Sequence record: OQ718158.1
Reading direction: 5' to 3' (one strand)
Length of the DNA stretch: 64,000 bases
DNA from: Escherichia phage vB_Ec-M-J
Shown here: positions 2,784-59,417 of the stretch, piece by piece
Numbering within the stretch: position 1 is the first letter of the stretch
How the letters are laid out: each line of letters begins with the position of its first letter
The notes under the pieces: generated by a model
The model's database searches: none
Seen by the model: only the letters and a program-made list of their open reading frames with translations
What the model was told of the DNA's origin: nothing
Position numbers and translations under genes: made by a program

Positions 2784-2785
2784 CA

Positions 2786-2816
2786 AAAAAGCACCCAAAT
2801 GGGTGCTTTGTCTATT
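2786..2816. terminator. bidirectional intrinsic terminator between convergent genes
   Basis: Hairpin gcaccc-aaat-gggtgc flanked by an A-run 5' and T-rich 3'. Confidence 0.6.
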
Positions 2817-4002
2817 TTGGTGTTTGTAACGTTACAAACGAACCAGTTAATGTATCAGAAGTTGGGTTTATACCAGTATACATAACACCATTACTTATTA
2901 CTATTGCAGTAAGGTTGTAAGACATTGAAATGAAATCATCAGAATCAGTTAGTGAATTTGGAATTAAACTAAATGTAAGTGTTGGATTTGGATTGGAACC
3001 CAAACGAGTTGTATAGTTTCCACCAGTTCCATATAAACCATCTGATTTTTTTATACCTATACCAAAATATCCTTCTGAATATACTGGATACAATTTATAA
3101 TCAGTTCCCATATCAAATGCAATCAAAGTTGGGTTTACAACGTTTCCTGATGCAGAAACACCATTACCCAAGTTACCAGCTATTCGGTTACCACATACCC
3201 ACATTTCATCAACCGATGTTGTAGTATTACGTAATACCATATATGTACCATAGTAAGAAACCATAATATCCGAAACGGTGTATGATGCTTTTGTATATTC
3301 TGTGAACGTTGTTAAGGCAGTTGTGTTACCCGTTCCAAGCTGCCCATTATTATTGATACCACATCGAAAAAGTGTATTATTATTTTTTAATATCCAAGTT
3401 CCATTATCAGCAGCTATACATATTTTTTTAACATCAGTACTAATTAATGTGAATTTAGTTACTGCTGATGTGTTTCCAGTTCCTAATGTACCATTAGCAT
3501 TTCTACCCATTCCGTAAGCTGAACCATCATTGAAATGTATAATTATATTATCCACCCAAACATGTATATCTTTTATATTATTGAGTTGTTCTTCTGTAAA
3601 TACACTAGAAAAGTAACTAGTTCTATCTACATAAACATTCGAGAATGATGACACACCCCCAAATGCATAAGTCGTGGTTGAGCATGATAAAAATTCATCA
3701 GTTTTCGTTTGTAATAATATAAATCGTCCAAAGGAACACCAAGCGTTTTTAACATTACTTCGGATAAGGGTCCAGGTAGTACGGTTAGTGCTTACATCAC
3801 CATCACCAAAAATATAATTTGAACCAGCACCACTACCACCACCACCACCAATTCCCCATAACTCACCATTATCATATAATATTATGATAGCAGAATAGTT
3901 GCTCGTTGTTGGTGTTAGTATTTTAGATATATTTGGTGTTGGAGCACGATTTCCGTACTTCACCATTCTTGCAAATGGAAGCATTTTAAGTCTCCTTATC
4001 AT
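2812..4002 (-). CDS. RCC1-like beta-propeller repeat protein
   Basis: 396 aa; repeated G-x-N-x-x-GQLGTGNT-type motifs (four or more); Gly-rich GGGGGSGAGS segment; only minus-strand gene in this plus-strand block. Confidence 0.5.
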   Translation of the reverse strand: MIRRLKMLPFARMVKYGNRAPTPNISKILTPTTSNYSAIIILYDNGELWGIGGGGGSGAGSNYIFGDGDVSTNRTTWTLIRSNVKNAWCSFGRFILLQTKTDEFLSCSTTTYAFGGVSSFSNVYVDRTSYFSSVFTEEQLNNIKDIHVWVDNIIIHFNDGSAYGMGRNANGTLGTGNTSAVTKFTLISTDVKKICIAADNGTWILKNNNTLFRCGINNNGQLGTGNTTALTTFTEYTKASYTVSDIMVSYYGTYMVLRNTTTSVDEMWVCGNRIAGNLGNGVSASGNVVNPTLIAFDMGTDYKLYPVYSEGYFGIGIKKSDGLYGTGGNYTTRLGSNPNPTLTFSLIPNSLTDSDDFISMSYNLTAIVISNGVMYTGINPTSDTLTGSFVTLQTPK

Positions 4003-4051
4003 TATTATATAGTATATTTATGCAACTTTCCTTTAGTTCGCTTTTAGTAAC

Positions 4052-4063
4052 CTCTAATAAATA
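4052..4063 (+). promoter_or_regulatory. late-promoter-like motif CTCTAATAAATA
   Basis: About 33 nt upstream of the 4097 start; same motif class recurs at 13894-13904 and 29867-29877. Confidence 0.35.
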
Positions 4064-4096
4064 CAGTAACTAATATCTAAATTACAAGGGATATGT

Positions 4097-6793
4097 ATGT
4101 CAAAGAAAATATATGGTGGCTTAGACGTCACTCATAATGTGACAGTTAAAGGGAAAAGAACAGTACAGGGCATCAATGAACAAGTATTTGATGCTAATGG
4201 TAATATGGAAATTGATACATATTCCAAAGAAGAATTACTTGATGTAATTAGTTTACTTCCAATCTCGCATTATGGTACACATAACTATCTACCTGCTGGG
4301 GTATCTGGTGATTTTAATGGTGCATCAGAAAACCAATCCCAACGTAGAAACAAAATACTTTTAGAAAACGATGGCACATTAGTACTATTACGTAGTGGTA
4401 CAAACGGTAGTGTTGAAGGTTTATTTTATTCTTACCTAGCGAACGCATTATCCGTTACCGATATGAGCCGTACTGTTAATACAAGCCGTCAGTATAAGCC
4501 TGGCTATTTTGGGGCAAACCGTGTTGCTATTGGTTTATACAATACCGATTCAAAAATACTGTTAGGTCGTTACAATGACACATCTACCAATACTAATGGG
4601 TTGTTTATATCAGTAACGAATGGTACATTGGATGATACTCAACATAGTGGTCTTTTTGTGAACCAAGCTGATATTTCACCTGAAGGTGGGATTGAGTATG
4701 CTATGATGGCAGAAGACGGTTCAGTTTATGTATTCAACGTCCTTAATGAAAATAACAAACTACAGATTGTTGTTGTTCGTGTTGTATTGAATATTGCAAA
4801 CGGTACTTATACTGCTACCCGAATCACGGGGTGGACAACAAAAACTTTTTACAATACTACATATACTGCTCAGAATAATATGATCATTACTGACCATGTT
4901 AACTCAACTAATATTGCTGATAAGCCCTATGTCTATGTACCACAAAATTTGGCTGGTATGGGGATTTATATGACATCTATCGATTTATATGTTGCTCAGG
5001 AGCCAGGAACGCAGAACTTCCGATTCAGAATGAATGGTGACGCATGGTTCACTATGGCAAACTACAATACCCGACCACAGCATAGTTATAGTTTCAATTT
5101 TAACATGAGTACTAAACAATGTAACTTGGATAATGGGAACGATATTGGTACATTTGCTGCACCATTTGTTGTTACAAACACAGGTTCGGCATTGGTTGCT
5201 ACTGGTAATGTTCTCAACAACGATCCGTTATATGACCATAGCGGTGCAAGAAACATTTACAGTTCATATTATTATTTGAATACAGGTGAAGTATTCTGTA
5301 CTGCATGTCCAAACTTAGCAGAACCATTACTTATGCAGAAAGCTAAATTTACTGCACAATCAATATATAGCATGATTAATGTACGTGCGAACATTTCAAC
5401 TGATTTCAGAAATGGCATAGTTCGTCCTTCATTTGGTTCAGCAGTTGGTTCTTTTATTAACGGCGTAGAATTGCTTCCAGGGAACAGTACTAAACAGTAT
5501 TCTCGTTCAACTGGTTCTGGTGCATTCCGTCCATCTTATGCAGTTCATAAAAGTACTCCTAACTTTACGTTTAATTCTTTATCACGTGGAACCATACAAG
5601 GTTATGAGCCAACAACAGAACGTGCTAATGTGACAGATAACACGAACAACAGAGTTTTTATTAGTTCCATTAGTGGTAATAATGTTACTACAAATGGTGG
5701 GATATTCATGGTAGGTCAGAGATATTCCCAATCACTATCATATGATAAAAATATGAACGGAACTGGTATCATTAGTGTTACTCAATCTGTACTTGATAAT
5801 TTCAGAAATGCTGAATACGCCAAAGTACTAAGCGACTGGAACTTATCTTCTGCTGCTTATAAAGATATGACATTGTTTGTTCCACAACAAACTGATATAC
5901 CTGCATTCGTAATGCTAAGTACAGTTACAAATACATATCAGAACTATATTAGAATTGCTGAAGTGAATGTGAATACACGTTCAGGTAATATCACTACAAT
6001 TACCTTCAAGCGTTTAGTACTAGAAAACGTTTACGGAAGTAACTTTACACCAAATGGTAATGGTAGTTTTGCATTGTCTTCTGTTGGTTTAACAATATAT
6101 GATGGTGGTTCTTTCTACTTCATAGGTGGTTCTGACCCATTATCTCACCCAACTATTGGTAATACAAACACACACCAATTCAGAGCATATGTAACAAAAG
6201 CAACTGCACAATTTGATAGTTTTATTATCAGTGGTTCACATGCAAGTTATGAGCAAGGTATTCAACCAGCAGCTTTACCTGGTATTGGTTTTGGTTATTT
6301 CCAAGCAATAGACTATGTAAACAAAATGACTTTCCAAAAATGTGGTACTACAATTGCTGATTATAATAACTGGACTGCTCAAGGTGCACCGATTAACGTA
6401 GTTTCACAAGACGTTGCTCAAGGTTTTATTGTGTACTTCACAGAAGAAACTCCAGTAATTCTTTCTGGTAAAGCATTTACATTACCGATTACTAGTATAA
6501 ACTTAACTACAGTTAAGGCTAATCCAGCAAACACATTATTTCATGTATATGTTAAAATGGAACAAGGTAATGCAAAATATGTAATAACAACTGATGTTAT
6601 TTCAGAGACTGGTACTACAGCATATAATATTTTCTGGATAGGTACTATACAAACAAACTCACTACAAATATCAAATGTTAACATACAAAAACGTTCAAGA
6701 TTGGATATTTTCGGTGCGTCACTTGAAGCTGCTGGTTCTTCATTCCCAGTTAGTTATGGTCTACCGTCACAAACAGGAACAATCAATTGGTAA
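4097..6793 (+). CDS. putative tail fibre / receptor-binding protein, paralog A
   Basis: 898 aa; paralogous to 7410..10139 (shared LLRSGTNGS and FIVYFTEE blocks); C-terminal module SFPVS.G.P.QTGT..W also in 6806..7393. Confidence 0.5.
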   Translation: MSKKIYGGLDVTHNVTVKGKRTVQGINEQVFDANGNMEIDTYSKEELLDVISLLPISHYGTHNYLPAGVSGDFNGASENQSQRRNKILLENDGTLVLLRSGTNGSVEGLFYSYLANALSVTDMSRTVNTSRQYKPGYFGANRVAIGLYNTDSKILLGRYNDTSTNTNGLFISVTNGTLDDTQHSGLFVNQADISPEGGIEYAMMAEDGSVYVFNVLNENNKLQIVVVRVVLNIANGTYTATRITGWTTKTFYNTTYTAQNNMIITDHVNSTNIADKPYVYVPQNLAGMGIYMTSIDLYVAQEPGTQNFRFRMNGDAWFTMANYNTRPQHSYSFNFNMSTKQCNLDNGNDIGTFAAPFVVTNTGSALVATGNVLNNDPLYDHSGARNIYSSYYYLNTGEVFCTACPNLAEPLLMQKAKFTAQSIYSMINVRANISTDFRNGIVRPSFGSAVGSFINGVELLPGNSTKQYSRSTGSGAFRPSYAVHKSTPNFTFNSLSRGTIQGYEPTTERANVTDNTNNRVFISSISGNNVTTNGGIFMVGQRYSQSLSYDKNMNGTGIISVTQSVLDNFRNAEYAKVLSDWNLSSAAYKDMTLFVPQQTDIPAFVMLSTVTNTYQNYIRIAEVNVNTRSGNITTITFKRLVLENVYGSNFTPNGNGSFALSSVGLTIYDGGSFYFIGGSDPLSHPTIGNTNTHQFRAYVTKATAQFDSFIISGSHASYEQGIQPAALPGIGFGYFQAIDYVNKMTFQKCGTTIADYNNWTAQGAPINVVSQDVAQGFIVYFTEETPVILSGKAFTLPITSINLTTVKANPANTLFHVYVKMEQGNAKYVITTDVISETGTTAYNIFWIGTIQTNSLQISNVNIQKRSRLDIFGASLEAAGSSFPVSYGLPSQTGTINW

Positions 6794-6805
6794 AGGATTA
6801 ATCTT

Positions 6806-7393
6806 ATGGCATATATTATAAGATCCGATATCGAAGCTATGTCACAAATCGTAGTCCAGAATAAAAACACTGGACTATCTATTAGTGATATTAATGACGT
6901 ATCGTATCGAACAGACGCAAATGGGGAATGTACATTCCCCCTCTTAACAAAAGATGAAGTTGATTCTATTGTTAACGGTTTACCATTATCACAATATGGT
7001 GAACTTTATGATGTATCTAGTTTGTCAATTACATCAAGCGGTTATTCATTACGTTTTAACCGAGAGATACCTGCATTCATCGGTGGCTATCTTTATAATT
7101 ACCCTGTTGTTGCAGTGACAGCACCAACAGTGGCATCAGGAACACAAACACAATATGTATACGCTACTTTAGTACTGGGTGAGCCAATTTATAGAATCTC
7201 AACTTCACAATTACAAGAATCACAGATTATAATGTTCATCGGGACTATTACCGTTGGAACTTCTGGTATTACTGCTATCAACATTGAACGCGTATCACGA
7301 TTCAATACATACAGACCAAGTACAACACAAAAAGGTTCATCTTTCCCAGTCAGTACTGGAAATCCAACACAAACTGGTACATTAGGCTGGTAA
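6806..7393 (+). CDS. small fibre-related protein sharing the C-terminal module of the flanking fibre genes
   Basis: 195 aa; C-terminus RFNTYRPSTTQKGSSFPVSTGNPTQTGTLGW parallels the C-termini of both neighbours. Confidence 0.45.
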   Translation: MAYIIRSDIEAMSQIVVQNKNTGLSISDINDVSYRTDANGECTFPLLTKDEVDSIVNGLPLSQYGELYDVSSLSITSSGYSLRFNREIPAFIGGYLYNYPVVAVTAPTVASGTQTQYVYATLVLGEPIYRISTSQLQESQIIMFIGTITVGTSGITAINIERVSRFNTYRPSTTQKGSSFPVSTGNPTQTGTLGW

Positions 7394-7409
7394 TTAAAGG
7401 AAAAAGAAT

Positions 7410-10139
7410 ATGTCATCCAAACGCATCATTGGTAGTGCTGCTATACTTGGAAATTTAGCAATTGGTGGAAAGTACGCTATGCGTACTTTTAATGGTACAG
7501 CACCAGACGCAAATACAGGTATTGTTGACTATCCAATTTATAAAAGATCAGAAGTTCAAAAAATACTTGATATGTTACCAATCTCCCGTATAGGGGAAAT
7601 GGATTATCTACCATTAAACGTTAATGGTTCATACGAAGGGGCAACGTCGCTTTCAGATGTATACCGTATGCAACCAACAATAGTCGAAGATGATGGTACT
7701 GGTGTGGTATTACGTGCTGGTACAAATGGTAGTACTGAAGGATATTACTATGCATTCATTCGTGATTTGCGTAATATTGATGCACTAACACAAAGTAGTG
7801 TTATCAGTACTACATCAAAATATCATCCTAGAATTCTTCCAAGTACTGAAAATGTTAAACAGTTTATCGGAACGAATGGTTATGAATTACTAGTTAGCCT
7901 ATCTAGTGCAAGTAATTATATTTTCACTTTAACAAATGGTACATTTAACGAAGTTGCACATATTCACGCTTCTATCGCTGCTACATCATTTGGTACAGAT
8001 AAACCATTGTATGCACATATCGTTAATGATAAAGTATTTGTGTGGTGCAAAGACACTACTATAGCAAACTATGGTTTGGCTTTAACATTATATACTGTTA
8101 ATACAAGTAGTATTAAAGATGGTACTATGAGTACTTTTGCTAAGGTTACTGGTTTTTCTGGTCAAACCTTAAGAAGTGTTAACTACACAAGTGCTAATAA
8201 TTTGAAAATTTATGAAAGATTATATTCAGTTGGAACTAGTAGTGATTCATTATTTGAATGCACTTCACCAGTTACACGAGTTGAATATTCAGATTATACA
8301 GATTATAATATACAAGCAAACGTAAGTCCAGATTTATCAAAGATTAGAATTACATTATTTCCAACTAACCGTTTAGTATCAAATCTATATATTAGTACTG
8401 TTTATGCTAGTGGTTTTAGTTTTGTTTATACTATCAACTCTAAATCATTATCAATTGATGGAAGTAGTAGAGCACCAATAGCAGCGGAATATAATGATGT
8501 TGATGGATTCACATTAACAAACCCATTTGCCATTGAGATGAACAACTTCATGGGTACACAGTTAGGTGTTCCGCAATTAGGTAACGTTGGTTCTATATGC
8601 CAAACCTATGACGGTTTAGTATTCAGTACTCGTGCTCGTTGGAGTTCTTCTGAAACCTATGGTATTCAGGTTTATAACGTAACAGGAACACCATATGATA
8701 GTTGGGTTGCCAGTACTCGCAAAGCGAACAATTCTAAATTTGTAAACGTTGCCCCAACATATGGTAGTGCAGTAGGTGAAAACCTTTTAGGAACACGTTT
8801 TATTGATAAACGTAAAGTACTGTTAGCATGTTCTGGAACATATGAAGATGAGTCATATGGTTATAACAATACAGTATTTTCTGAAATTGGCACTGATCCA
8901 ACCTTCCAGTTCAATTCAGTACAAAACAATACAACACTTAATGGTTTTGCACCACAAGCCAACCGAACTCGCCTCGGCGACAACTACAAATATACAGGTA
9001 TGATTTCATTAATTGATACTGACGGTTCAGTTAAATGTTATGGGACATCATTCATTGAAGGTGTATACAAAACAAGTGGTGGTTTGTTTAACCCAGATAC
9101 TTTAGAATTTGATGGTTCTTATACAATTGGTGATAATGTTCTGGAAACATTAAAACAAGAAATACTTGCTAATATTGGAATAGTAGGAGCATTTACTGGT
9201 AAAATTGCTTTATATTATGTACCAGATAGTTCTTTCTCAAAATCTATTGCGGTGGTTTCTGCATATAACTTAGGAAATAACCAAGGTTATGCAATATATT
9301 CTGAAGTTGATGTCACTGTTTCAGGAACCAATATTAGTTCTGCGTCTATGGTGAGTTCTAGATACGAAACACTTAATTCTGTAACAGGTATTGTAACCGA
9401 AGCCTATATGAAACGCTGTACTGGTCTAACTGTTGCTAAGTATTCTGGTTTTGGTTATATTGGTGTTGATGCAGTTCATCAGTTTTCACAACCTGGTAAT
9501 GCTCAATTCAAATTGATGATTGCTAAAACAGTGAATGGTTTGATTACATCTAACCGATTTATGTCATCCAGCTACATAGATAATGGCAATGCATTCCAGC
9601 ACGGAGTTATACCAGGTGTTGGATTTGGATACTATCATCTTCAAGATTCAGATTATCAAACTAAAGCAGTGTTTAGTCTCTTTGGGACAACATCAGCACA
9701 GATGGATGGGTTGATTGATGGTTCAGGAACTGTACAAGATAAAATCGTAGTAGTTTCACAAGATGTTGCTGAAGGTTTCACTGTGTACTTCACCCGTGAA
9801 GTTCCGGTATTCCTTGGTGGTATGTTTGATAGATTAGCGATTCAAACCATAGAATTAAGTACTATTAAAACTAACCCAGCTAACAGTACTTTTTATCTTT
9901 ACATTCAAATGAACCGTAACACAAGAAAAGCGGCATACGTTATCAGTACAACTCTTCTTGATGAGACATTGACAAACGTATATGTTGGTGATATTGTTAC
10001 TGGAAGTACGAGTATTACGTCAATTGATACTGAAAAGGTAACCCGATTCTTGACATACAGACCTAGTACGACCAAGCGTGGTTCTGCTATCCCAGCAAGT
10101 ACTGGTGTTCCTTCAAGCTCTGGTACACGTTGGCATTAA
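7410..10139 (+). CDS. putative tail fibre / receptor-binding protein, paralog B
   Basis: 909 aa; paralog of 4097..6793 with divergent central region. Confidence 0.5.
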   Translation: MSSKRIIGSAAILGNLAIGGKYAMRTFNGTAPDANTGIVDYPIYKRSEVQKILDMLPISRIGEMDYLPLNVNGSYEGATSLSDVYRMQPTIVEDDGTGVVLRAGTNGSTEGYYYAFIRDLRNIDALTQSSVISTTSKYHPRILPSTENVKQFIGTNGYELLVSLSSASNYIFTLTNGTFNEVAHIHASIAATSFGTDKPLYAHIVNDKVFVWCKDTTIANYGLALTLYTVNTSSIKDGTMSTFAKVTGFSGQTLRSVNYTSANNLKIYERLYSVGTSSDSLFECTSPVTRVEYSDYTDYNIQANVSPDLSKIRITLFPTNRLVSNLYISTVYASGFSFVYTINSKSLSIDGSSRAPIAAEYNDVDGFTLTNPFAIEMNNFMGTQLGVPQLGNVGSICQTYDGLVFSTRARWSSSETYGIQVYNVTGTPYDSWVASTRKANNSKFVNVAPTYGSAVGENLLGTRFIDKRKVLLACSGTYEDESYGYNNTVFSEIGTDPTFQFNSVQNNTTLNGFAPQANRTRLGDNYKYTGMISLIDTDGSVKCYGTSFIEGVYKTSGGLFNPDTLEFDGSYTIGDNVLETLKQEILANIGIVGAFTGKIALYYVPDSSFSKSIAVVSAYNLGNNQGYAIYSEVDVTVSGTNISSASMVSSRYETLNSVTGIVTEAYMKRCTGLTVAKYSGFGYIGVDAVHQFSQPGNAQFKLMIAKTVNGLITSNRFMSSSYIDNGNAFQHGVIPGVGFGYYHLQDSDYQTKAVFSLFGTTSAQMDGLIDGSGTVQDKIVVVSQDVAEGFTVYFTREVPVFLGGMFDRLAIQTIELSTIKTNPANSTFYLYIQMNRNTRKAAYVISTTLLDETLTNVYVGDIVTGSTSITSIDTEKVTRFLTYRPSTTKRGSAIPASTGVPSSSGTRWH

Positions 10140-10146
10140 AAATTTT

Positions 10147-10176
10147 AAGCTCGTCTATTGACGGGCTTTTCTTTTA
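10147..10176 (+). terminator. intrinsic terminator after fibre gene
   Basis: Hairpin gctcgtc-tatt-gacgggc followed by ttttctttt. Confidence 0.6.
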
Positions 10177-10186
10177 TGTGTATAAT
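10158..10186 (+). promoter_or_regulatory. sigma70-like promoter (TTGACG-17-TATAAT) overlapping the terminator
   Basis: -35 ttgacg 10158-10163, -10 tataat 10181-10186, TG two bases upstream of the -10. Confidence 0.5.
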
Positions 10187-10209
10187 GCTAGAAAATACAG
10201 GAGGAAATT

Positions 10210-10776
10210 ATGGTCAAATCTTTACTACCACCACCAAAGCGTCACAAAATCCAAGAAATGAAAGACCAACGTACATTAAAGATGTACAACAATTTAGTTA
10301 AGTTACTGTGTAAAAGTCCATCGCTCAAAGCAGAGTTTAAAACTGATGATGACCGCAAAGCACTAATTGAGATGAAGTATATGCTCAGTAAAATGTCCTT
10401 TTACAAATTTGTAAAAGAATACGCATCTGACCCATTTAGTCCTCGTTGGAGAACCAAACCAAGAGAGTTTTTTTTCGGTGGTTCATATACTGATATCATT
10501 CAAGATACTGTGATAGGCGTAGAGTTCGAGATTGATTATGAGCCGAATGGTGTGGAAAACTTGCTGATTGAGAAACGTTTACCAAGTGAAGAAGAAATTT
10601 ATGTTTATGCAAGAAAACTTTCAACTTACAGTTCAAGAATTACTCTAGGCAAGTTAGATTCATTTATTATTTTCTATATACGTGTTGGCGTAGACAAAAT
10701 GGTAACTAAACTCAATGAACTTTCATTACAACAAAAACAGATTAATGCATACAAAGACATTACTGATTTATACTAA
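10210..10776 (+). CDS. hypothetical protein, tandem paralog family member 1
   Basis: 188 aa; shares an N-terminal module (KSPSLKAEFKTDDDRKALIEMKYMLSK) with the next two genes. Confidence 0.55.
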   Translation: MVKSLLPPPKRHKIQEMKDQRTLKMYNNLVKLLCKSPSLKAEFKTDDDRKALIEMKYMLSKMSFYKFVKEYASDPFSPRWRTKPREFFFGGSYTDIIQDTVIGVEFEIDYEPNGVENLLIEKRLPSEEEIYVYARKLSTYSSRITLGKLDSFIIFYIRVGVDKMVTKLNELSLQQKQINAYKDITDLY

Positions 10777-11304: not shown

Positions 11305-11810
11305 TTTCATTTTTCAAAAAGAAAGAAAAAGTTGATGAAACTGGATTAGAATCGTTTCTATGGACTCTTATCATCAAAAAAAGTCCATTGATAAAAGAAT
11401 ATGCCATCAATGATACTAATAGAAAAACTATCATTGAATACAAATACGAATTAGCAAAATGTGATCCGATTGTTTACCACTTCGTAAAGTACTGTTCTGA
11501 AAATTTATCGGATATCACTATTGAACACGAGTCAGTACCAATGAGTTTTCCTTATGGAGATTGGGTATATACTTATGATATTTTTGATGGGTCTAACGGA
11601 TTCAGTTTTTATTTCACATCAAATAAAGCATATGTTCGAATCAAAACAGATATAGGTTGGGTATTGCATAGCACAAATAAAGAAGATTATAATTTATTAG
11701 CTGATGTATACAGAAGTGTTAAGAACTCAAAGGATATTGATGAAAGAATTAAAAAGCAAAATCGTATTTCTTTATCAATAGAAACATACAAGTCAAAGTA
11801 TGGTGGTTAA
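11301..11810 (+). CDS. hypothetical protein, tandem paralog family member 3
   Basis: 169 aa; module KSPLIKEYAINDTNRKTIIEYKYELAK; 4-nt overlap with upstream gene. Confidence 0.55.
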   Translation: MISFFKKKEKVDETGLESFLWTLIIKKSPLIKEYAINDTNRKTIIEYKYELAKCDPIVYHFVKYCSENLSDITIEHESVPMSFPYGDWVYTYDIFDGSNGFSFYFTSNKAYVRIKTDIGWVLHSTNKEDYNLLADVYRSVKNSKDIDERIKKQNRISLSIETYKSKYGG

Positions 11811-11812
11811 CT

Positions 11813-12214
11813 ATGACTACAGTTGATGATATCTACAGTACTATACGAAATATGAGTACAGATAGAAAAGTGTTTGGTGACAAAGAAAAGTCAAAATGTT
11901 ATGGCATCGATTCTTTTGATATTATTTCATACGAATATAATAACAACGGGACCAGTTCACTAAACATTGTGTGTCCACGAGATCCAGAAAATAATTTCAT
12001 GTACGTTGAAATTAACAATGATGGTATGTTCTTTACTAAAGTATATAAAGGTGGGAAAGAATACGAACCCATCGAAGTAATGAATGAAGAGAAATTCTTC
12101 CAAGAAGATACCATCATCAATCTTGGATTTAGTTACAATGACTATCAAGTACTGGATCATGATTTTAAACGATACTATAATGGTTTTCTAAAGGAGTTAA
12201 CGATTTACTTATGA
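11813..12214 (+). CDS. hypothetical protein
   Basis: 133 aa ORF tightly packed in the operon. Confidence 0.5.
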   Translation: MTTVDDIYSTIRNMSTDRKVFGDKEKSKCYGIDSFDIISYEYNNNGTSSLNIVCPRDPENNFMYVEINNDGMFFTKVYKGGKEYEPIEVMNEEKFFQEDTIINLGFSYNDYQVLDHDFKRYYNGFLKELTIYL

Positions 12215-13449
12215 AAAACAATTTTCTAGAACAAACTATTGTGAAACACTTAGCTGGTTCACAGGCGTATGGCACAAGCACACCAGAAAGTGATACCGAT
12301 TATCGTGGTATCTTCCTTGCAAACAAAGAATTTATCCTAACTCCTTTTTTTAATGTTAAGGAAGTTTCAGATCCTTCTGAAGAAGATACTAAATTTTATG
12401 AAGTCAATCAGTACTTAAGTCTGTATACTGAAGCTAACCCAAACATTCTTGAATCACTATGGGTTAAACCTGAACACATCGTAGAAAGTACTGAAATCTA
12501 TGACTATCTACGCTCATTCAATCAGCAATTATTGAGTTCAAAGATTGCACACTCATACAGTGGATATGCATACAATCAGGTTAAGCGTATGTCTAATCAC
12601 CACGGCTGGCTCGATAAGGAACGAATTGCTGAACGTAAACTAAATGAAATTTTAGAAGAACATCCAGTTGACGAAGTACTTTCATGGATGTATGATACAT
12701 TCCCGCAGTATTTGGTAGACCGTTTGAATAAATCCAATCTTCACCCATTCAATGCTACAAAAATTGATTTTGAAAAATACATGCGTGATACTTCATTACA
12801 ATTAGTTTCAACACAAGCATTGAAACAATATCATTTTGTACGTTTAGTACATAATTATAGTACTGATAAAGTATTAGATCGTGATTTCAATTTATTGAAT
12901 TACAATTCAGGGTATGAACTAATCCATTACGGTGAAAACATCTTTGGGGTAATTATCAACCCGAATGAAAGTACAGTGAATGCTGATGGTTCACTACGTT
13001 ACTTCAACAAAGAACGTACTACAGAAGAATTGAAAGTTCGTCCTGAACTCATTGTAAAATTCAATGAAAAGGAATACAAAGAAAATAGTGAGAACCGTAA
13101 GAGTTATCACAAATGGAAGCAGAATCGTAATGCCAAACGTGCTATTCTTGAATCACACCACGGTTATGACTGCAAACATGCTATGCATACAATCAGGCTG
13201 CTGAATACAGCACAGGAAGCACTTGAAACTGGTATCATCCAAGTTCACCGACCGGATGCTGCTATGTTGATGGACATTCGTAACGGGAAGTGGTTGTATC
13301 AAGAAGTTATGGATTATTTCAACGAAAAGGTTGACTACATCCGAAATGTGGCGTATCATAAGACCCATCTACCGAAGCGACCAAACATAAAGTTGGCTAC
13401 GAAGGTACTATTAGATATCCGTGAAATGCAATGGTACAGTAAAAAATAA
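12211..13449 (+). CDS. Pol-beta superfamily nucleotidyltransferase (PF10127-like, tentative)
   Basis: 412 aa; N-terminal GSQAYGTSTPESDTDYRG matches a GS...SDxD nucleotidyltransferase signature. Confidence 0.5.
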   Translation: MKNNFLEQTIVKHLAGSQAYGTSTPESDTDYRGIFLANKEFILTPFFNVKEVSDPSEEDTKFYEVNQYLSLYTEANPNILESLWVKPEHIVESTEIYDYLRSFNQQLLSSKIAHSYSGYAYNQVKRMSNHHGWLDKERIAERKLNEILEEHPVDEVLSWMYDTFPQYLVDRLNKSNLHPFNATKIDFEKYMRDTSLQLVSTQALKQYHFVRLVHNYSTDKVLDRDFNLLNYNSGYELIHYGENIFGVIINPNESTVNADGSLRYFNKERTTEELKVRPELIVKFNEKEYKENSENRKSYHKWKQNRNAKRAILESHHGYDCKHAMHTIRLLNTAQEALETGIIQVHRPDAAMLMDIRNGKWLYQEVMDYFNEKVDYIRNVAYHKTHLPKRPNIKLATKVLLDIREMQWYSKK

Positions 13450-13459
13450 GAGGATTGTT

Positions 13460-13876
13460 ATGCTAAACGAACAAATCAAAGACGCACTACGTGTACTGAA
13501 TCGCGAAGTTAACCGCATCCAGAAAAGTACTGATCGTTATAAACTAATGCATGAACTTAGACTTTCGTTGGAAGCTATCAATAATGGCGAATGGTATCTT
13601 GAACCAGAATATCGCACACGTGAACTAACTGACGTTGAAAAAGCAATTGTCAAATTCATTACAAGTCGCGACAAAAATGCATCCGAAAAAGATGTATCAA
13701 TGAACTTCCATCTTACTAAATGTGAAGTCGTGGAAAAATTTAAATTCGATTGGCTTGACTGGATTGAAATGATCATGGAACTTGAAGAAGAATTCAAAGT
13801 TGAAGTTGATTTGGAATACGAGAATGAAAACACTAAACTGTATAAACTCGTAGATCATATTCAAAAAATGTTGTAA
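13460..13876 (+). CDS. hypothetical protein with ACP-like C-terminal helix motif
   Basis: Start moved to the Met with RBS agagga (track start 13421 overlaps upstream gene); DWLDWIEMIMELEEEFKVEV resembles ACP DSLDTVELVMALEEEF but lacks the Ser. Confidence 0.45.
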   Translation: MLNEQIKDALRVLNREVNRIQKSTDRYKLMHELRLSLEAINNGEWYLEPEYRTRELTDVEKAIVKFITSRDKNASEKDVSMNFHLTKCEVVEKFKFDWLDWIEMIMELEEEFKVEVDLEYENENTKLYKLVDHIQKML

Positions 13877-14617: not shown

Positions 14618-15229
14618 ATGTCAAAATATCAGGTCTACTATGTTGCCAAACTATCACTTCTTGATGAGTTAAATCAAAGAAGTACACAGATGAAACGCTA
14701 TACATATAACGGTGTTACTTTCCGATACTTCCCACAAAAAGTACTTACATTCGTTAAGAATTGTAAATGCGTTGCGTGTGGTATTGAAGCTACTGAAGTT
14801 CGCATTGAGCGTTCACATAGCACTGATCCGGTATATGGTAAACCTCACTTAAATGTCTATGCAGTTTGTGGTCTATATGAAGTACTGATGACAGTAGATC
14901 ATAACCAACTAGCATCTAAGGGTGGACCTGATTTAGAGTCAAATTACAACACAATGTGTTCACGTTGTAACAGTCTTCGTTCTAATAAAACTGAATCAGT
15001 AGGTGAATTCCTGGAAAAAGTTAAGGGTAGAAATCTACTGGAAGAGCATATGAATGATTTTTTCAATAAAGATAAGAAGAAATCTAAAACTCCTACTCCA
15101 GAAGAATTGGAAGAACGCCGTTTACGTACAGAACTATGGGAAACCGACCATATATGGCATGTTCGTGATTTTGGACGACATATGAAAGCTCTAAAAAAAG
15201 AACAAAAGAAATTGAATAATCACAATTAA
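14618..15229 (+). CDS. HNH endonuclease (free-standing homing-endonuclease-like)
   Basis: 203 aa; CxxC...DHNQLASKGG...N...CSRCN HNH motif; basic C-terminal tail. Confidence 0.7.
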   Translation: MSKYQVYYVAKLSLLDELNQRSTQMKRYTYNGVTFRYFPQKVLTFVKNCKCVACGIEATEVRIERSHSTDPVYGKPHLNVYAVCGLYEVLMTVDHNQLASKGGPDLESNYNTMCSRCNSLRSNKTESVGEFLEKVKGRNLLEEHMNDFFNKDKKKSKTPTPEELEERRLRTELWETDHIWHVRDFGRHMKALKKEQKKLNNHN

Positions 15230-51530: not shown

Positions 51531-54500
51531 TTAAGCAGTACGTTGTGCAATGAACAAATCAGTAACTGGACTTACACCATCATAAATTACTTGGTAAATG
51601 GTCACGCTACCAGCAGTTTTGTTTAGTTCACCATCAACAACAGCATAAGTACCATCAGTTGTAAAGTTTCTGTTACCAGTTGCATCTTGTTTAACATAGA
51701 TGTATACTGATGCAGCTTTACCGCCACCAATTAGGCCAGTAATTGGAGCCAACGTGGTATCTTGGTCTAGAGTGATGAAGTATACGTTACTTGTACCATC
51801 TGGAGTCCATGTTCCGGTTGGAGCAATTACTGATGATGTAACTTGAGTTGGGATTACATCATACTTTTTGGTAGTTACTGTTGTAGTAGTTAAGTTAGCA
51901 TTAGTAGTGGTTAGTTCACCAGTCACTGTTACTGCCTTATCAAACACAGCATTTTCTTTAAATGATGAAGTTGCATTAACGGTTAGAACGTCAGCCGCTG
52001 CGTCACCTAATGTTACGTTACCATTCACAGTTAGTGCTCCACCTACTGTTGCGTTACCAGTAATGGATGCACTTGCAAGTGTAGCCAAACCTGATGTTGT
52101 AATTGTAGAAACGGTTGTTGCAGCGAATCCAGCAGTACCAGTTGCAGTGATATTGCCACCCACTGTTATGTTACCCGCAGTGGTCACTGCACCAGTGATA
52201 TTTGCACCACTTGACATAGTTACTAAACCACCAAATGAACCAGTAGTAGTAACTTCTAAAGTATTACCTTTAAGTAATCCAGTTGCAGTGATGGAAGTAC
52301 CAGCAGTAATTGCAGTACCTGCACTTAATGTGGTTCCAGCAGCTACGTTGTTAGCTGCAGTCAAAGACTTAACAGCTACATCGGAATCTGCTTGGTTCAA
52401 TTGTGCATTTAGTACGCCAGTAACAGTGAAGTTACCGTTGTTTACAACGTTACCATTAACGATTAGGTTGTTGTTTTGTGAACCGACTTCACCAATGGTT
52501 GCAGCCTTGGATATAAGTGATGCACCAGATGTAATATCACTTGCTGCCTGTATTGTTTGTTCGGCAACAATTGCATATGGTTCAATTGTTTGACCACTAA
52601 CATCAATATCAGCATTTATACCACCGTCAACACGCAAGGAACCTGCGATGAACGTATTTGGAAAAATCTGTACTGTTTCTGGGTTTTCACCAGTTTGTGT
52701 ACCAATTACAACATTTGCTCCAGTTTTCACTGCACCAGCAGTTGTGATAGAACCGAGTGTAGTAGCACCAGTTACTGATAGTGTTCCACCTATGGTTGCA
52801 TTGTTTGTTACTATTAAGCCAGTACCTGTACCATTAAAGGTAGACGATGGTGCTGAAATTGCACCAGTAACACCAAGAGAACCACCAACAGTTGCATTAC
52901 CATCTGAATGAATGGTTGTTGCGACAGAAATACTATTTGCAACAACATCAGTACTGGAAAGATCCAAACTACCAGGAGTTAATGTACCAGCAACAGTTAC
53001 ATCATCACTGAATGTAGCTGCACCAGTTACACCTAGTGTAGTACTAAAGTTACCGGATGTTGATGTAATACCAGATGTTACAATAGATCCCGCAGTTGCA
53101 GTTCCAGTTACATCAAGTGTTCCACCTATGGTTGCATTATTAGTAACAGATAGAGCAGTTCCTGAACCATTTAGTGTTACAGATGGAGCAGATACTACAC
53201 CAGTTACACCCAAATCGCCACCAACAGTTGTGTTACCGTCGGAATGCATGGTTGTTGCTACAGAAATACTATTTGCAGTAATATCAGATGATGCTAAATT
53301 CAAACCACCAGCAGGTGTAAATGTACCATTTACGGTTACATCCCCAGTAAAGGTTGAATCTCCTGACACATCAACTGTTGTTGTCGAAACACCACCATTT
53401 AAGTTTGTTAAACCAGTGACACTTAGTGTTCCACCAACCGTTGCGTTGTTGTTAACAGTTAAGCCAACACCTGGTCCAGTTAAGGACGCAGAAGGACTTG
53501 TTATTGCCCCACCAAAAGATGCAGTTCCAACAGAACTTATAGTTGTGGAAGATGATAATGATTTAACTTCAACATCAGATGCTGATAAATCAACACCACC
53601 ACTTGCAGTAAGTAATCCATCAACTTGTAAGGTTCCACCAAGTGTTGCTGCACCAGTACTAGATAGTGTATTTGTACTTACTGATGTTGCAGACAAACTA
53701 CCAGTATTAACAGTACCTAGTGTTGTTATGCCAGTTACGTTTAATGTACCATTTAAAACAGACGCCTTTGTAACAGACAAACTATCAATTGTAGCTGGAC
53801 CAGAAACATCGATAGTTTCTGCATCTAAACTACTTAATGTTGATGCACCAATTACATTAAGTGTTGTTGCAGCTTCTACACTGTTTACCACAAGATCAGC
53901 ACCAGCAAGATTCAAACCACCTTCTGGTATAAATTCACCTTTAACAGTTAATTTCTGAACAGTACTGTCACCTGAAATATCCAACGCAGATGCTGCTACG
54001 CCACCATTAAATGTACTTTGACCAGTAACTGCTAAAGTTGTTCCAACTGTTGCACTGTTTAGTGCTGCATTACCACTTATTGATGCGGCAGGTGCGGTTA
54101 TTGTACCTTCATCCAACTGCAACCCACCAGAAACAACTTGAACACCACCAGTTGCTACTGTAACTTTACCAGCGGTATTAACAGTACCAGATGTGGATAC
54201 TGCACCGACAAGAGTTGAAGTACCATTAACTGTCAAATTACCAGAAATTTCAGGACTACCAGTAACAATACCAGTTGTTAGAACCAAATCTCCACCAACA
54301 GTTGTTGAACCAGTACTTGCTAGTGTTGAAGCTGTGATATCAGCGGAACTTAGATCAATAGATCCATCAACACTAATATCCCCACCAACATGCACGTTTC
54401 CTAATGAATCTAACGATTTAACGGTCACATCAGTTGTGCTTAAGTCAATTATACCAGCAGTTAGTGTGCCAGATACAGCCAAATCACCAGTGATTGCAGT

Positions 54501-57497: not shown

Positions 57498-57592
57498 AGA
57501 GTCCCCTCCTATAACGATGAACTATATATTCATAACCCATCTTTTGTTAATATACTTATATTTAGTTTAATTCACAAAAACACTATTATCTA

Positions 57593-57628
57593 ATACAAAA
57601 GAAAAAGCCAACTAAAAAAGTTGGCTTT
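57593..57628 (-). terminator. intrinsic terminator (minus strand)
   Basis: Minus-strand agccaact-ttttt-agttggct followed by ttttcttttgt. Confidence 0.6.
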
Positions 57629-57646
57629 AATTATTAATTTAAAATG

Positions 57647-59395
57647 TTATACACGTTGTGCAACGAAGGTATCAAACACAGTACTGAAACCATCATAGAT
57701 TACTTGGATAATACTTGTTTGACCAACTACAGCACTTACTGTACCAGAAACTACAGAGTATGCACCACCGAAGGTGAAAGTAGTATCAGCAACAGTTGGA
57801 GTTACATAGATATACACTGAACATGCTTGACCACTACCAATTAGACCCGCGATGGAATCCATTGTAACACTTTGGTCAAGAGTTAAGCGATATACGTTAG
57901 TAGTACCATCTGGTGTCCAAGTACCACCTACAGCAGCAGTAGAAGCAGTAACACTAGCAGGGATAACAGAATATTTCTTAGTTACCATGTTGTTTGTAGT
58001 GAAGTTTGCAGTGGTGGTGTTAATAGAACCAGTCACTGTTAGGTTCTTATCAAATGTTGCGTTCTCTTTAAATGTAGATGTTGCATTTACAGTTAAAGTA
58101 TCAGCAGCAGCATCACCAATCACAGTGTTACCATTTGCAGTTAATGTACCACCTACAGTTAGAGCACCAGTTACAGATGCACTTGCAAGGGTAGCTAAAC
58201 CTGATGTTGTAATGGTAGAAACGGTTGTTGCACCGAATCCAGCAGTACCAGTTGCAGAGATATTACCACCTACTGTTAGGTCACCAGCAGTGATACCAAC
58301 AGTACCAGTGATGTTTGCACCACTTGACATAGTTACTGCACCACCAAATGAACCAGTAGTGGTGACTTCTAACGAATTACCTTTTAGTAAGCCTGATGCA
58401 GTGATGGATGTTCCAGCAGTGATTGAAGTACCAGCCGCAACGTTATTAGTTGCAGTTAAAGATTTAACAGCTACATCGGAATCTGCTTGGTTCAATTGTG
58501 CATTTAGTACACCAGTAACGGTGAAGTCACCATTAGTTACTACGTTACCATTAACAGTTAGGTTGTTGTTTTGTGAACCAACATCACCAATTGTTGCAGC
58601 TTTAGAAACGATGGTTGCACCAGAAGTAATGTTACCAACAGCAGATAGTGTTGCAGCAGCTTCAATTGCATATGGTTCTAGTGTTTGACCACTTACGTCG
58701 ATTTCAGCGTTAATACCACCGATTACACGCAATTTACCAGCAATATAAGTATCTGGAATGATCTGTACAGTTTCAGGTTGTTCACCAACTGGAGTACCAA
58801 CAGTTAGGGTTGTACCAGTTTTCACTGCACCAGTAGCTGTTAGTGAAGATACAGTAGTTGCACCAGTAACACCTAGAGTTCCAGTTACACCCAAATTACC
58901 ACCAACTGATGCGTTTGCAGTAGAAGTTAAACTTCCAACAGTTGCTAGACCAGATGCAGTCACAGTAGAAGTACTAACACCACCACTTAGAGTACTTAGG
59001 CCAGTTGCATTGATAGTTGTCGCAGTAGTTAGACTATTAGCAGTAATGTCTGCACCGCTTAGGTCAAGACCACCTTGTGGGATCAATTCACCTTGGACAG
59101 TTAGTTTCTGAACAGTACTGTCACCAGAAACTGTTAGTGATGTCGCAGATACACCTGCTAGAGTAGAAGCACCAGTTACACCTAAAGTTCCAGTAATGGA
59201 AGTTCCTGCTAGAGTAGAAGCACCAGAAACGTTAATTGTGTTAGTATTGATACCACCATCAACTACCTGAATACCACCAGTACTCACTGTTACTTTCTTA
59301 CCGATATTAACAATATCAGTTAGGTTAACAGCACCAGTTACACCAAGAGTTCCACCGATTGTTGTATTACCAGAGATAGCTGGGCTACCAGTCAC
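57647..59395 (-). CDS. fibre protein C-terminal part (paralog, frame-disrupted)
   Basis: 582 aa from a GTG; frame open upstream to 59434; collinear with the C-terminal third of the 1988-aa protein. Confidence 0.5.
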   Translation of the reverse strand: MTGSPAISGNTTIGGTLGVTGAVNLTDIVNIGKKVTVSTGGIQVVDGGINTNTINVSGASTLAGTSITGTLGVTGASTLAGVSATSLTVSGDSTVQKLTVQGELIPQGGLDLSGADITANSLTTATTINATGLSTLSGGVSTSTVTASGLATVGSLTSTANASVGGNLGVTGTLGVTGATTVSSLTATGAVKTGTTLTVGTPVGEQPETVQIIPDTYIAGKLRVIGGINAEIDVSGQTLEPYAIEAAATLSAVGNITSGATIVSKAATIGDVGSQNNNLTVNGNVVTNGDFTVTGVLNAQLNQADSDVAVKSLTATNNVAAGTSITAGTSITASGLLKGNSLEVTTTGSFGGAVTMSSGANITGTVGITAGDLTVGGNISATGTAGFGATTVSTITTSGLATLASASVTGALTVGGTLTANGNTVIGDAAADTLTVNATSTFKENATFDKNLTVTGSINTTTANFTTNNMVTKKYSVIPASVTASTAAVGGTWTPDGTTNVYRLTLDQSVTMDSIAGLIGSGQACSVYIYVTPTVADTTFTFGGAYSVVSGTVSAVVGQTSIIQVIYDGFSTVFDTFVAQRV

Positions 59396-59417
59396 AACAC
59401 CAGTTGTTAGTACTAGA

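Follow-up and report, generated by a model that had tools for sequence, protein, structure and literature searches.

Exchangeable fibre tips are known from several phage systems, such as the mosaic C-termini of the T-even gp37/gp38 type, the invertible segments of Mu and P1, and DGR-diversified Mtd. Small genes beside tail-fibre genes are often assembly factors or chaperones. [quoted passage not shown] Shoulder domains form trimers, with a central cavity that takes up a loop of the baseplate partner. In phiKZ, a gp131-type domain anchors hetero-hexameric peripheral fibres (PMC13250141), and gp168 of SPN3US is a tail protein (PMC5105663).

Three tandem genes of Escherichia phage vB_Ec-M-J (OQ718158.1), located in a stretch of 64,000 nucleotides that is referred to below as the window, share features with several of these systems. 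Their arrangement is reminiscent of the exchangeable-tip systems, taken here as general background rather than compared in sequence, in that several genes or segments with a related C-terminal part lie beside a host-recognition gene. It also resembles phiKZ gp131–gp135 and RAY gp18–20, tandem paralog sets that include short members (phiKZ gp132 has 110 aa). The distal domain of phiKZ gp131 folds into a beta-propeller, as the bodies of the long proteins of the trio are predicted to do, and paralogs combine as a hetero-oligomer in the phiKZ fibre. The original prediction for this locus, made from the DNA, was that two paralogous receptor-binding-type proteins and a short ORF share a swappable C-terminal module, with the short ORF serving as a spare cassette. 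The reading favored by the present analysis, to which a probability of about 0.6 is assigned, is that the trio constitutes a conserved operon of RaK2-like jumbo phages whose products are virion proteins akin to the distal portion of the gp131-family peripheral tail-fibre proteins of chimalliviruses.

Organization of the Locus

Over the window, identity to the Asteriusvirus-like coliphage fEgEco12 is 99.3%. The three ORFs, all on the + strand, are found exactly where they had been placed originally; they are separated by gaps of 12–16 nt and are named A (898 aa), B (195 aa), and C (909 aa). The features referred to below are as follows.

4083–4096, + strand: Shine-Dalgarno-like AAGGGA 5' of A (sequence reading)
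4097–6793, + strand: paralog A, 898 aa; N-terminal segment, beta-propeller-rich body, and C-terminal module; tail signature YGLPSQTGTINW
6383–6793, + strand: C-terminal module of A, residues 763–898 (C-module HMM E 7.6e-49, envelope 763–898)
6707–6790, + strand: tail of A, residues 871–898; conserved end following the shoulder-like beta-sandwich
6793–6805 and 7396–7409, + strand: AAAGGA 5' of B and 5' of C, respectively (sequence reading)
6806–7393, + strand: paralog B, miniaturised, 195 aa; tail signature TGNPTQTGTLGW
6806–7012: N-terminal segment of B, residues 1–69
7013–7306: shoulder-like beta-sandwich of B, about residues 70–167
7307–7390: conserved tail of B, residues 168–195
7410–10139, + strand: paralog C, 909 aa; tail signature TGVPSSSGTRWH
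Residues 1–77 of C: N-terminal segment
7641–9719: beta-propeller-rich body of C, about residues 78–770
9732–10136: C-terminal module of C, residues 775–909
10147–10178, + strand: terminator-like hairpin with T-run, directly past the stop codon of C; 9-bp stem with 5 G-C pairs

The hairpin marks the end of the three-gene unit, and terminators are annotated on either side of the corresponding trio in the record of phage Munch. A T4-type late-promoter motif 5' of A, ATAAATAC, is uninformative because the window has 3 copies where 5.8 would be expected, and a sigma-70 promoter scan yielded background level only. The trio adjoins nrdD/nrdG, and its surroundings are non-structural or hypothetical genes outside the structural gene cluster. 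The order nrdD–nrdG, ~900 aa, ~195 aa, ~915 aa is kept in Asteriusvirus, in Munch, and in four metagenomic relatives at 43–47% identity. A and B lie in a common frame here, with a TAA and 12 nt between them; a readthrough fusion of the two was rejected, as the frames differ in phAPEC6.

Formal alignment bore out the proposed similarity of the three C-termini. B aligns with the C-terminus of C (32% identity over 176 aa, BLASTP E 2e-22) and with that of A (32% over 125 aa, E 3e-17), and its final 28 residues are 54–57% identical to A or C. The two long proteins had been described as sharing blocks at both ends while differing centrally; identity is indeed higher in the end blocks (41% at residues 46–115 and 44–46% at residues 721–870), but the centre is diverged rather than unrelated, with 18–29% identity in an alignment of A and C that extends from end to end (26% overall, E 4e-54). 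Similarly, B does carry the shared C-terminal module, but it also has the N-terminal segment of the family, with residues 37–67 matching that of both long proteins (E 2e-4 and 8e-5). These alignments identify A, B, and C as ancient tandem paralogs, consistent with the paralogy first proposed, and no fourth paralog was found within the 64-kb window.

The trio has been catalogued, though merely as hypothetical, by virtue of its membership in PHROG families: A belongs to phrog_3573 (E 1.7e-263) and the other two ORFs to phrog_26864 and phrog_7449 (E 9.5e-84 and 8.1e-231), all three of which are listed as 'unknown function'. The long and mini forms are kept there in separate families, and their relationship, domain architecture, and function are unrecorded. 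Searches of Pfam, NCBIfam, and PDB sequences with single sequences and with profiles returned zero matches. Every Asteriusvirus record lists the three genes as 'hypothetical', and the trio is unmentioned in the papers describing fEgEco12 and Sharanji. The links to the gp131 family and to the shoulder of RBPs and TssK described below give about 6 kb of conserved jumbo-phage sequence its first assignment that can be tested.

Paralog B and the Loss of the Body

In the Mimasvirus phages CBB and GAP32, three full-length genes occupy the same place, and the Mimasvirus ortholog of B is a full-length middle paralog of 916 aa. Residues 1–69 of B match the N-terminus of this middle paralog in CBB (E 2e-11), and CBB_148 is matched by B at both ends, such that B corresponds to the 916-aa gene minus about 725 internal residues. 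This comparison shows that B is a paralog that has lost its whole body in frame while the N-terminal segment, the shoulder-like domain, and the tail were kept. B has its own AAAGGA ribosome-binding site and ATG start, and its length is steady at 190–202 aa across 29 protein clusters, down to 41% identity. With dN/dS values of 0.09 for A (against phAPEC6), 0.20 for B, and 0.13 for C, the substitution pattern indicates that B is under purifying selection.

Body-less forms recur across relatives. Among the top 150 representative clusters, the module-carrying proteins include 56 clusters at 131–260 aa versus 66 at 881–1020 aa, body-less paralogs accounting for about one third, and the module is C-terminal in 136 of the 150. 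The trio of XaC1 has the format mini–mini–long, and RAY gp18 (420 aa) comprises a gp131-like anchor and the C-module without a body. Such recurrent paralogs represent a natural experiment on the parts of a fibre subunit that are needed for assembly, and they could guide the design of chimeric fibres in which the N-terminal segment and C-module are kept and the body is swapped. More generally, a short ORF that has its terminus in common with its neighbours can be a miniaturised paralog and not a spare cassette.

Predicted Architecture of the Family

A full-length member would consist of four parts: an N-terminal segment of ~50–75 aa that contains an LP(I/L)SxxG motif and a single helix; a body of ~700 aa, rich in beta-propellers, which is variable and probably glycan-binding; a beta-sandwich of ~100 aa with a predicted shoulder fold; and a conserved 28-aa tail that is rich in Gly, Pro, Ser, and Thr and has a terminal Trp. 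In the structural models, the bodies of A and C conform to a 5- or 6-bladed propeller, and the propeller in the model of C (pLDDT 86) resembles lectins and sialidases. Propeller structure matches are promiscuous, and a Foldseek search of the 909-aa model against the PDB returned generic tandem propellers only, with TM <0.2 and no phage structure among them. E93, R102, H184, and R313 (C numbering) are invariant in the family alignment. For B, structure prediction gave a confident beta-sandwich with a disordered conserved tail.

The modeled beta-sandwich of the C-module can be superposed on the shoulder of the p2 RBP and of TssK, a comparison in which sequence identity to known shoulder domains is only about 10–14% and the trio side is a predicted model. 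The position of the domain is different: unlike in the p2 RBP and TssK, it is C-terminal in the trio and is followed by the 28-aa tail only. The fold of the C-module is thereby predicted to be that of an attachment domain rather than a receptor-binding head, which runs counter to the idea that the module forms a receptor-binding tip, as does its place among the conserved and not the variable parts of the proteins. Because B lost its body and retained the other three parts, the common module most likely serves oligomerisation or docking, and we infer an attachment role for it. B would then most likely be a structural subunit that lacks a body yet still occupies its position in the assembly.

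Inheritance of the C-Terminal Module

The idea of a swappable module makes B a silent or spare C-terminal cassette, with recombination moving a receptor-binding tip from one long gene to the other. The C-terminal modules of all three ORFs are indeed similar, and the trio is more diverged from phAPEC6 than most of the flanking genes, with a step in identity at its 3' end. However, trees of the N-module and of the C-module resolve identical orthologous clades for A, B, and C, and the ends of the tails are clade-specific signatures conserved across genera ('..INW' in A, '..IGW' in B, and '..RW(H/K/N)' in C). Together, the congruent trees and clade-specific tails give no sign of swapping. Nor do the genes contain the repeats that recombination could use: the best DNA match between paralogs is 73 nt at 79% identity, and no flanking or meaningful inverted repeats were found. 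Gene conversion between paralogs was rejected as well, given that the module of B resembles that of its Mimasvirus ortholog more closely than those of A or C in the same genome.

The pattern of conservation is likewise the opposite of that expected for an exchanged tip. The C-module ranks among the better-conserved parts of all three proteins, whereas the propeller body is the most variable segment of C. The tail is the best-conserved segment of A and C, with dN/dS of 0.02–0.04; that of A, at 96% amino acid identity to phAPEC6 and dN/dS 0.02, is the most conserved segment of the protein. In B the tail value is 0.26, where dS is low too. In contrast to the exchangeable-tip systems, the trio is without invertase, reverse transcriptase, template repeat, or flanking recombination site; its short copy is complete, independently translated, and conserved; and it combines a conserved shared part and a variable centre with phylogenies that reflect vertical inheritance. 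A cassette would also have little use for the ribosome-binding site, start codon, and N-terminal segment of B, for its constrained length and sequence, or for a full-length Mimasvirus ortholog, and the attachment fold predicted for the module is at odds with a tip. In view of the congruent trees and the conserved full ORF, a spare cassette is refuted for practical purposes, and the probability left to it is minimal.

Relationship to gp131-Type Fibre Proteins

A profile of the C family matches RAY gp20 (E 6e-127) and RAY gp19 (E 7e-90) over profile positions 54–908. EL gp114/115 match it at the N-motif and the C-module, and SPN3US gp168 matches through residues 544–1400 with a probability of 96.8%. 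RAY gp19/gp20, EL gp114/115, and SPN3US gp168 therefore contain a unit homologous to the trio that extends from the LPxSxxG motif to the C-module, and in the RAY, EL, and SPN3US proteins this homology starts at profile position ~54, downstream of their anchors. These profile matches show A, B, and C to be homologous to chimallivirus fibre-family proteins.

The anchors lead in turn to phiKZ. The N-termini of RAY gp18, RAY gp19, and EL gp114/115 match phiKZ gp131/133/134/135 with E values down to 1e-20, and that of SPN3US gp168 does so more weakly; the matches of RAY gp19, EL gp114/115, and SPN3US gp168 span 130–280 residues. RAY gp20 matches the phiKZ gp131 family over a ~50-residue stretch only (E about 1e-4). 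A direct comparison of the family profile with phiKZ gp131 and gp133 by hhalign gave a probability of <1%, and, as judged from these searches, the link to the phiKZ gp131 family is only transitive, via the RAY, EL, and SPN3US proteins. The trio also differs from the chimallivirus members in several respects. It is without their gp131-like anchor of ~250 aa and has its own starting segment of ~50 aa instead; its genes lie past nrdD/nrdG, whereas the EL and RAY homologs abut a baseplate assembly gene; and the C-module, terminal in the trio, is internal in SPN3US gp168 and RAY gp20.

Location in the Virion and Models of Assembly

In phAPEC6, the one phage with a virion proteome, ESI-MS/MS of virions identified gp323c, the ortholog of A (4 peptides, 5.6% coverage). 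The same proteomics could not report B and C, as their orthologs are unannotated in the phAPEC6 record. GenBank gives CBB_148 and CBB_149 the label 'structural protein'; both are missing from the table of the CBB paper, in the portion available, which leaves the label unconfirmed there. Mass spectrometry of RAY and Deimos-Minion shows expression only, because crude lysate was used. [quoted passage not shown] That the proteins act in host interaction or as tail fibres is plausible, which supports this much of the original prediction, considering the A ortholog in virions, the gp131-type anchor on homologs, and the lectin- and sialidase-like propeller. The trio provides candidate host-recognition proteins in phages that are under development against pathogenic E. 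coli.

By analogy with phiKZ, and considering the number of genes and their tight linkage, A, B, and C may co-assemble into one hetero-oligomer, a proposal whose chances are a little short of even. A more specific and rather tentative version holds that they would be obligate subunits of one fibre, joined via their C-terminal shoulder-like domains and tails, with the propeller 'heads' being tuned: the body would have been deleted repeatedly in one or two subunits and the place-holders kept, resulting in three heads per fibre in Mimasvirus, two in Asteriusvirus, and one in XaC1. If so, the shoulder and tail module, here C-terminal, would be a general connector, and the conserved tail might itself plug into a neighbouring shoulder trimer. 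Separate homo-trimers of A, B, and C, each docking elsewhere via its own tail and with the B trimer acting as a small cap or decoration, would agree with the homotrimeric state of the solved shoulder-domain proteins (p2 RBP, 1358 RBP, and TssK), and a tail signature conserved in each clade would suit three distinct docking sites. Against such an arrangement, which appears unlikely on balance, stands the base of the homologous phiKZ fibre, a hetero-hexamer of paralogs (PMC13250141), together with the strict retention of all three lineages, even as mini forms, in a tightly linked operon; while neither point is decisive, one complex that needs each subunit is the simpler account of that retention.

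The size of B, its location between both long genes, and its membership in the same operon would also fit an assembly factor or chaperone, a protein with ends resembling those of A and C that would template how these two fold or oligomerise before being released. B holds exactly the two segments that the monomer models leave disordered or predict with low confidence, both being likely interfaces, and proteomic detection of B is absent, its ortholog being unannotated in the phAPEC6 record. Such a function is nevertheless improbable: B is orthologous to a full-length paralog labelled structural in GenBank, XaC1, with two of its three paralogs mini, would have one client for two chaperones, and no known chaperone family was matched in Pfam and NCBIfam at E up to 1 or in PHROGs. 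RAY gp18, itself body-less, bears a genuine virion anchor of the gp131 type, which speaks for a structural role. It is similarly hard to credit that the trio forms the 'hairy' whiskers or decorations, or their anchors, that phAPEC6 and CBB carry on sheath and capsid, rather than a baseplate or tail-fibre structure. Whiskers as well as decorations of the collar or tail are unassigned in both phages, and the virion protein gp323c is without an assigned place; yet the models are globular and all-beta rather than fibres of about 120 nm, GAP32 has the trio although the CBB authors expected it to be without whisker genes, and the chimallivirus homologs are fused to a gp131-type baseplate-fibre anchor and lie beside baseplate genes.

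Recombination at the Scale of Whole Genes

Relative to phAPEC6, dS is 1.1–1.5 for the trio and 0.14–0.57 for four flanking genes, and identity steps from about 72–78% to 98% at the hairpin 3' of C. The divergence of the trio together with this sharp 3' step indicates that recombination does act on the locus, though at the scale of whole genes. The nearby gene orf11813 has diverged from phAPEC6 at least as much as the trio. In one of the metagenomic relatives (L013), tailspike-type genes are inserted on either side of the trio.

A Common C-Terminal Module in Three Paralogs

The coordinates of the three paralogous ORFs (the trio) were confirmed:

4097-6793, plus strand: gene A, 898 aa
6806-7393, plus strand: gene B, 195 aa
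7410-10139, plus strand: gene C, 909 aa

Alignment of B with the C-termini of C (E 2e-22) and A (E 3e-17) is significant and bears out the original observation of a C-terminal module common to all three. The accompanying claim that A and C differ centrally holds in part: the center is least alike (18-29% identity, compared to 41% in residues 46-115 and 44-46% in residues 721-870), but the alignment is nonetheless full length (26% identity, E 4e-54). Over the last 28 residues, A and C are 36% identical, and B is 54-57% identical to A or C. Residues 37-67 of B also match A and C in their N-terminal segment (E 8e-5 and 2e-4), so B is more than a C-terminal piece. No further paralog was found in the 64-kb window.

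The AF2 model of B contains a confident beta-sandwich (residues 70-165, pLDDT about 90) and an N-terminal part of low confidence; the tail (residues 168-195) has a pLDDT below 40, yet is the most conserved sequence. The model of C is of good quality (pLDDT 86, pTM 0.81) and all-beta, with low confidence in approximately the first 75 residues and a pLDDT below 50 in the tail (residues 881-909). A "shoulder" domain is common to p2 RBP, 1358 RBP, SPP1 gp22, and TssK, where it forms a trimeric attachment domain that accepts an inserted loop of a baseplate partner (PMC7291167, PMC6300606). In the trio proteins, a predicted shoulder-type domain is used at the C-terminus.

Proposed Modular Exchange and the Origin of the Short Gene

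The module had been interpreted as a swappable receptor-binding tip. Trees built separately from the first 72 residues and the C-terminal module (neighbor-joining, no bootstrap; taxa from Asteriusvirus, Munch, Mimasvirus, and XaC1) yielded the same three clades, each with a tail signature kept across genera: YGLPS..G.INW in A, (S/T)GNP...G.(I/L)GW in B, and TGVPSGTGTRW(H/K/N) in C. The top DNA-level similarity between paralogs was 79% across 73 nt, with no recombination repeats present. In A and C, conservation is highest in the 28-residue tail; in C, it is lowest in the beta-propeller-rich middle section (body). None of these results agrees with exchange of a tip cassette.

The idea that B is a spare C-terminal cassette, suggested by its shared C-terminus, is effectively excluded. 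B is preceded by its own AAAGGA ribosome-binding site, carries the N-terminal segment, and has a steady length, all 29 clusters of homologs measuring 190-202 aa at identities down to 41%. Against phAPEC6, dN/dS is 0.09 for A, 0.20 for B, and 0.13 for C, values that are approximate given a dS of ~1.1-1.5, near saturation. The Mimasvirus phages CBB and GAP32 have a full-length gene (912-916 aa) at the position of B, flanked by A-type and C-type genes after nrdD/nrdG. This gene is the best match of B at both ends, with B residues 1-69 resembling CBB_148 residues 4-72 (E 2e-11) and B residues 77-195 resembling CBB_148 residues 799-919 (E 9e-31). B is thus the middle paralog from which ~725 internal residues were lost in frame; the break points are domain boundaries in the model of C.

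The body-less short form (mini) is not confined to this locus. When 1.84 billion representatives were searched with a profile, 496 clusters were found to carry the module. Among the best 150 of these, 66 fall at 881-1020 aa and 56 at 131-260 aa, and the module is C-terminal in 136. In an unrelated metagenomic contig, a mini gene directly follows a long gene, and the long-mini-long order after nrdD/nrdG is kept in four metagenomic relatives. XaC1 carries two consecutive minis before a single full-length gene; the first has an A-type protein as its best hit, with an ambiguous tree position:

XaC1 5404-5976: mini paralog, 190 aa
XaC1 5986-6570: mini paralog, 194 aa

Relation to phiKZ-Type Fiber Proteins

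A profile of the C family matched Erwinia phage RAY gp20 (E 6e-127) and gp19 (E 7e-90) almost end to end, EL gp114/115 at the N-terminal motif and C-terminal module, and residues 544-1400 of SPN3US gp168, a tail protein (PMC5105663). RAY gp19 and EL gp114/115 have an additional N-terminal region of ~130-280 aa with clear homology to phiKZ gp131/133/134/135 (E as low as 1e-20); SPN3US gp168 also matches gp131 (E 1e-8), and RAY gp20 matches the gp131-type region over ~50 residues only. In phiKZ, the gp131-type domain is the hetero-hexameric base of twelve peripheral baseplate fibers (PMC13250141). In contrast to RAY gp19 and EL gp114/115, the A/B/C family lacks this anchor, and no similarity to phiKZ gp131 or gp133 was found. 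The trio is a distant, anchor-less variant of paralogous jumbo-phage fiber proteins.

RAY gp18 (420 aa; RAY 3098-4360), seen by mass spectrometry in crude lysate, combines anchor and C-terminal module without a body and is a second, independent body-less format. The gp131-type paralog cluster of phiKZ also includes a short member, gp132 (110 aa; phiKZ 14811-15143).

Virion Association and Proposed Assembly

The A ortholog of phAPEC6, gp323c, is among 62 virion proteins detected by ESI-MS/MS (4 peptides, 5.6% coverage; PMC7247149). The B and C orthologs are intact ORFs (6001-6588 and 6605-9334 of MK817115) without GenBank annotation, the record instead annotating a 114-nt "gp322c" within the C ortholog; hence neither could appear in the published virion proteome. 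For the GenBank "structural protein" labels of CBB_148/149 and XaC1_225, no source data were found in the accessible part of the sources. The orthologs of A, B, and C are labeled "hypothetical protein" in the fEgEco12-type and Asteriusvirus records compared, the PHROG catalog lists the trio proteins only as unknown (phrog_3573, phrog_26864, phrog_7449), and no description of the trio or a mini paralog was found in the literature searched.

The best-supported reading is that the trio is a three-gene operon of tail-fiber-family virion proteins. The common module, with its shoulder-like sandwich and tail, would serve as an oligomerization or docking device, the tail probably gaining order only as assembly proceeds; ligand binding would likely fall to the variable propeller body, and B would be a body-less subunit kept for assembly. 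That A, B, and C assemble together as one hetero-oligomer is suggested, though unproven, by the precedent of phiKZ, by the strict retention of all three lineages, and by their tight linkage; three separate homo-trimers are a serious alternative. That B acts as a chaperone is less likely, as is a part for these proteins in sheath or capsid whiskers. An anchor-less fiber-protein variant with a shoulder-type domain at its C-terminus is of value for annotation and fiber engineering, and a mild surprise to the specialist.

Genomic Setting and Mosaicism

Over 4097-10139, identity is 99.3% with the jumbo coliphages fEgEco12, Ecwhy_1, and EC.P1 and ~76% with the group of RaK2-like Asteriusvirus phages that includes PBECO4, 121Q, and phAPEC6. 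Against phAPEC6, dS is 1.1-1.5 in the trio versus 0.14-0.57 in four flanking genes, with the nearby exception of orf11813 (pS 0.78), diverged at least as much as the trio. Identity is 71-78% through gene C and 98% past a terminator-like hairpin:

10147-10168: terminator-like hairpin directly after gene C, site of the identity step

By these comparisons, the trio as a block, a larger unit than the module, has a history different from that of its flanks. Such block-wise mosaicism is common for host-interaction genes. The boundary with phAPEC6 is sharp, at about 10150-10250. In one of the four metagenomic relatives (Logan SRR18476386 contig), tailspike-type genes, 40% identical to each other in the N-terminal 175 aa, are inserted on either side of the trio, which suggests a hot spot for host-recognition genes:

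Contig 2853-5195: Phage_tail_beta + Peptidase_S74
Contig 11423-13540: Phage_tail_beta + Beta_helix

A and B share a reading frame, with only a TAA stop and 12 nt between them (6791-6806), so that readthrough would yield a fusion; in phAPEC6 the two frames are different, and the shared frame here is probably coincidence.

The trio is preceded by the nrdD and nrdG genes for anaerobic ribonucleotide reductase. A ~1.24-kb insertion (2784-4056) separates the nrdG terminator hairpin from the promoter region of gene A; it is missing from fEgEco12 (a 99% relative) and phAPEC6 and has no nucleotide match among 50,697 phage records. The multi-copy RCC1-like "DNA condensation" proteins of these phages share no more than 34% identity with the protein encoded by the insertion. 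Very large ORFs toward the other end of the window may be part of a structural gene region:

2812-4002, minus strand: RCC1-repeat (beta-propeller) protein, 395 aa, inside the insertion
Within 51531-62567, minus strand: ORFs of 1988, 582, and 1049 aa
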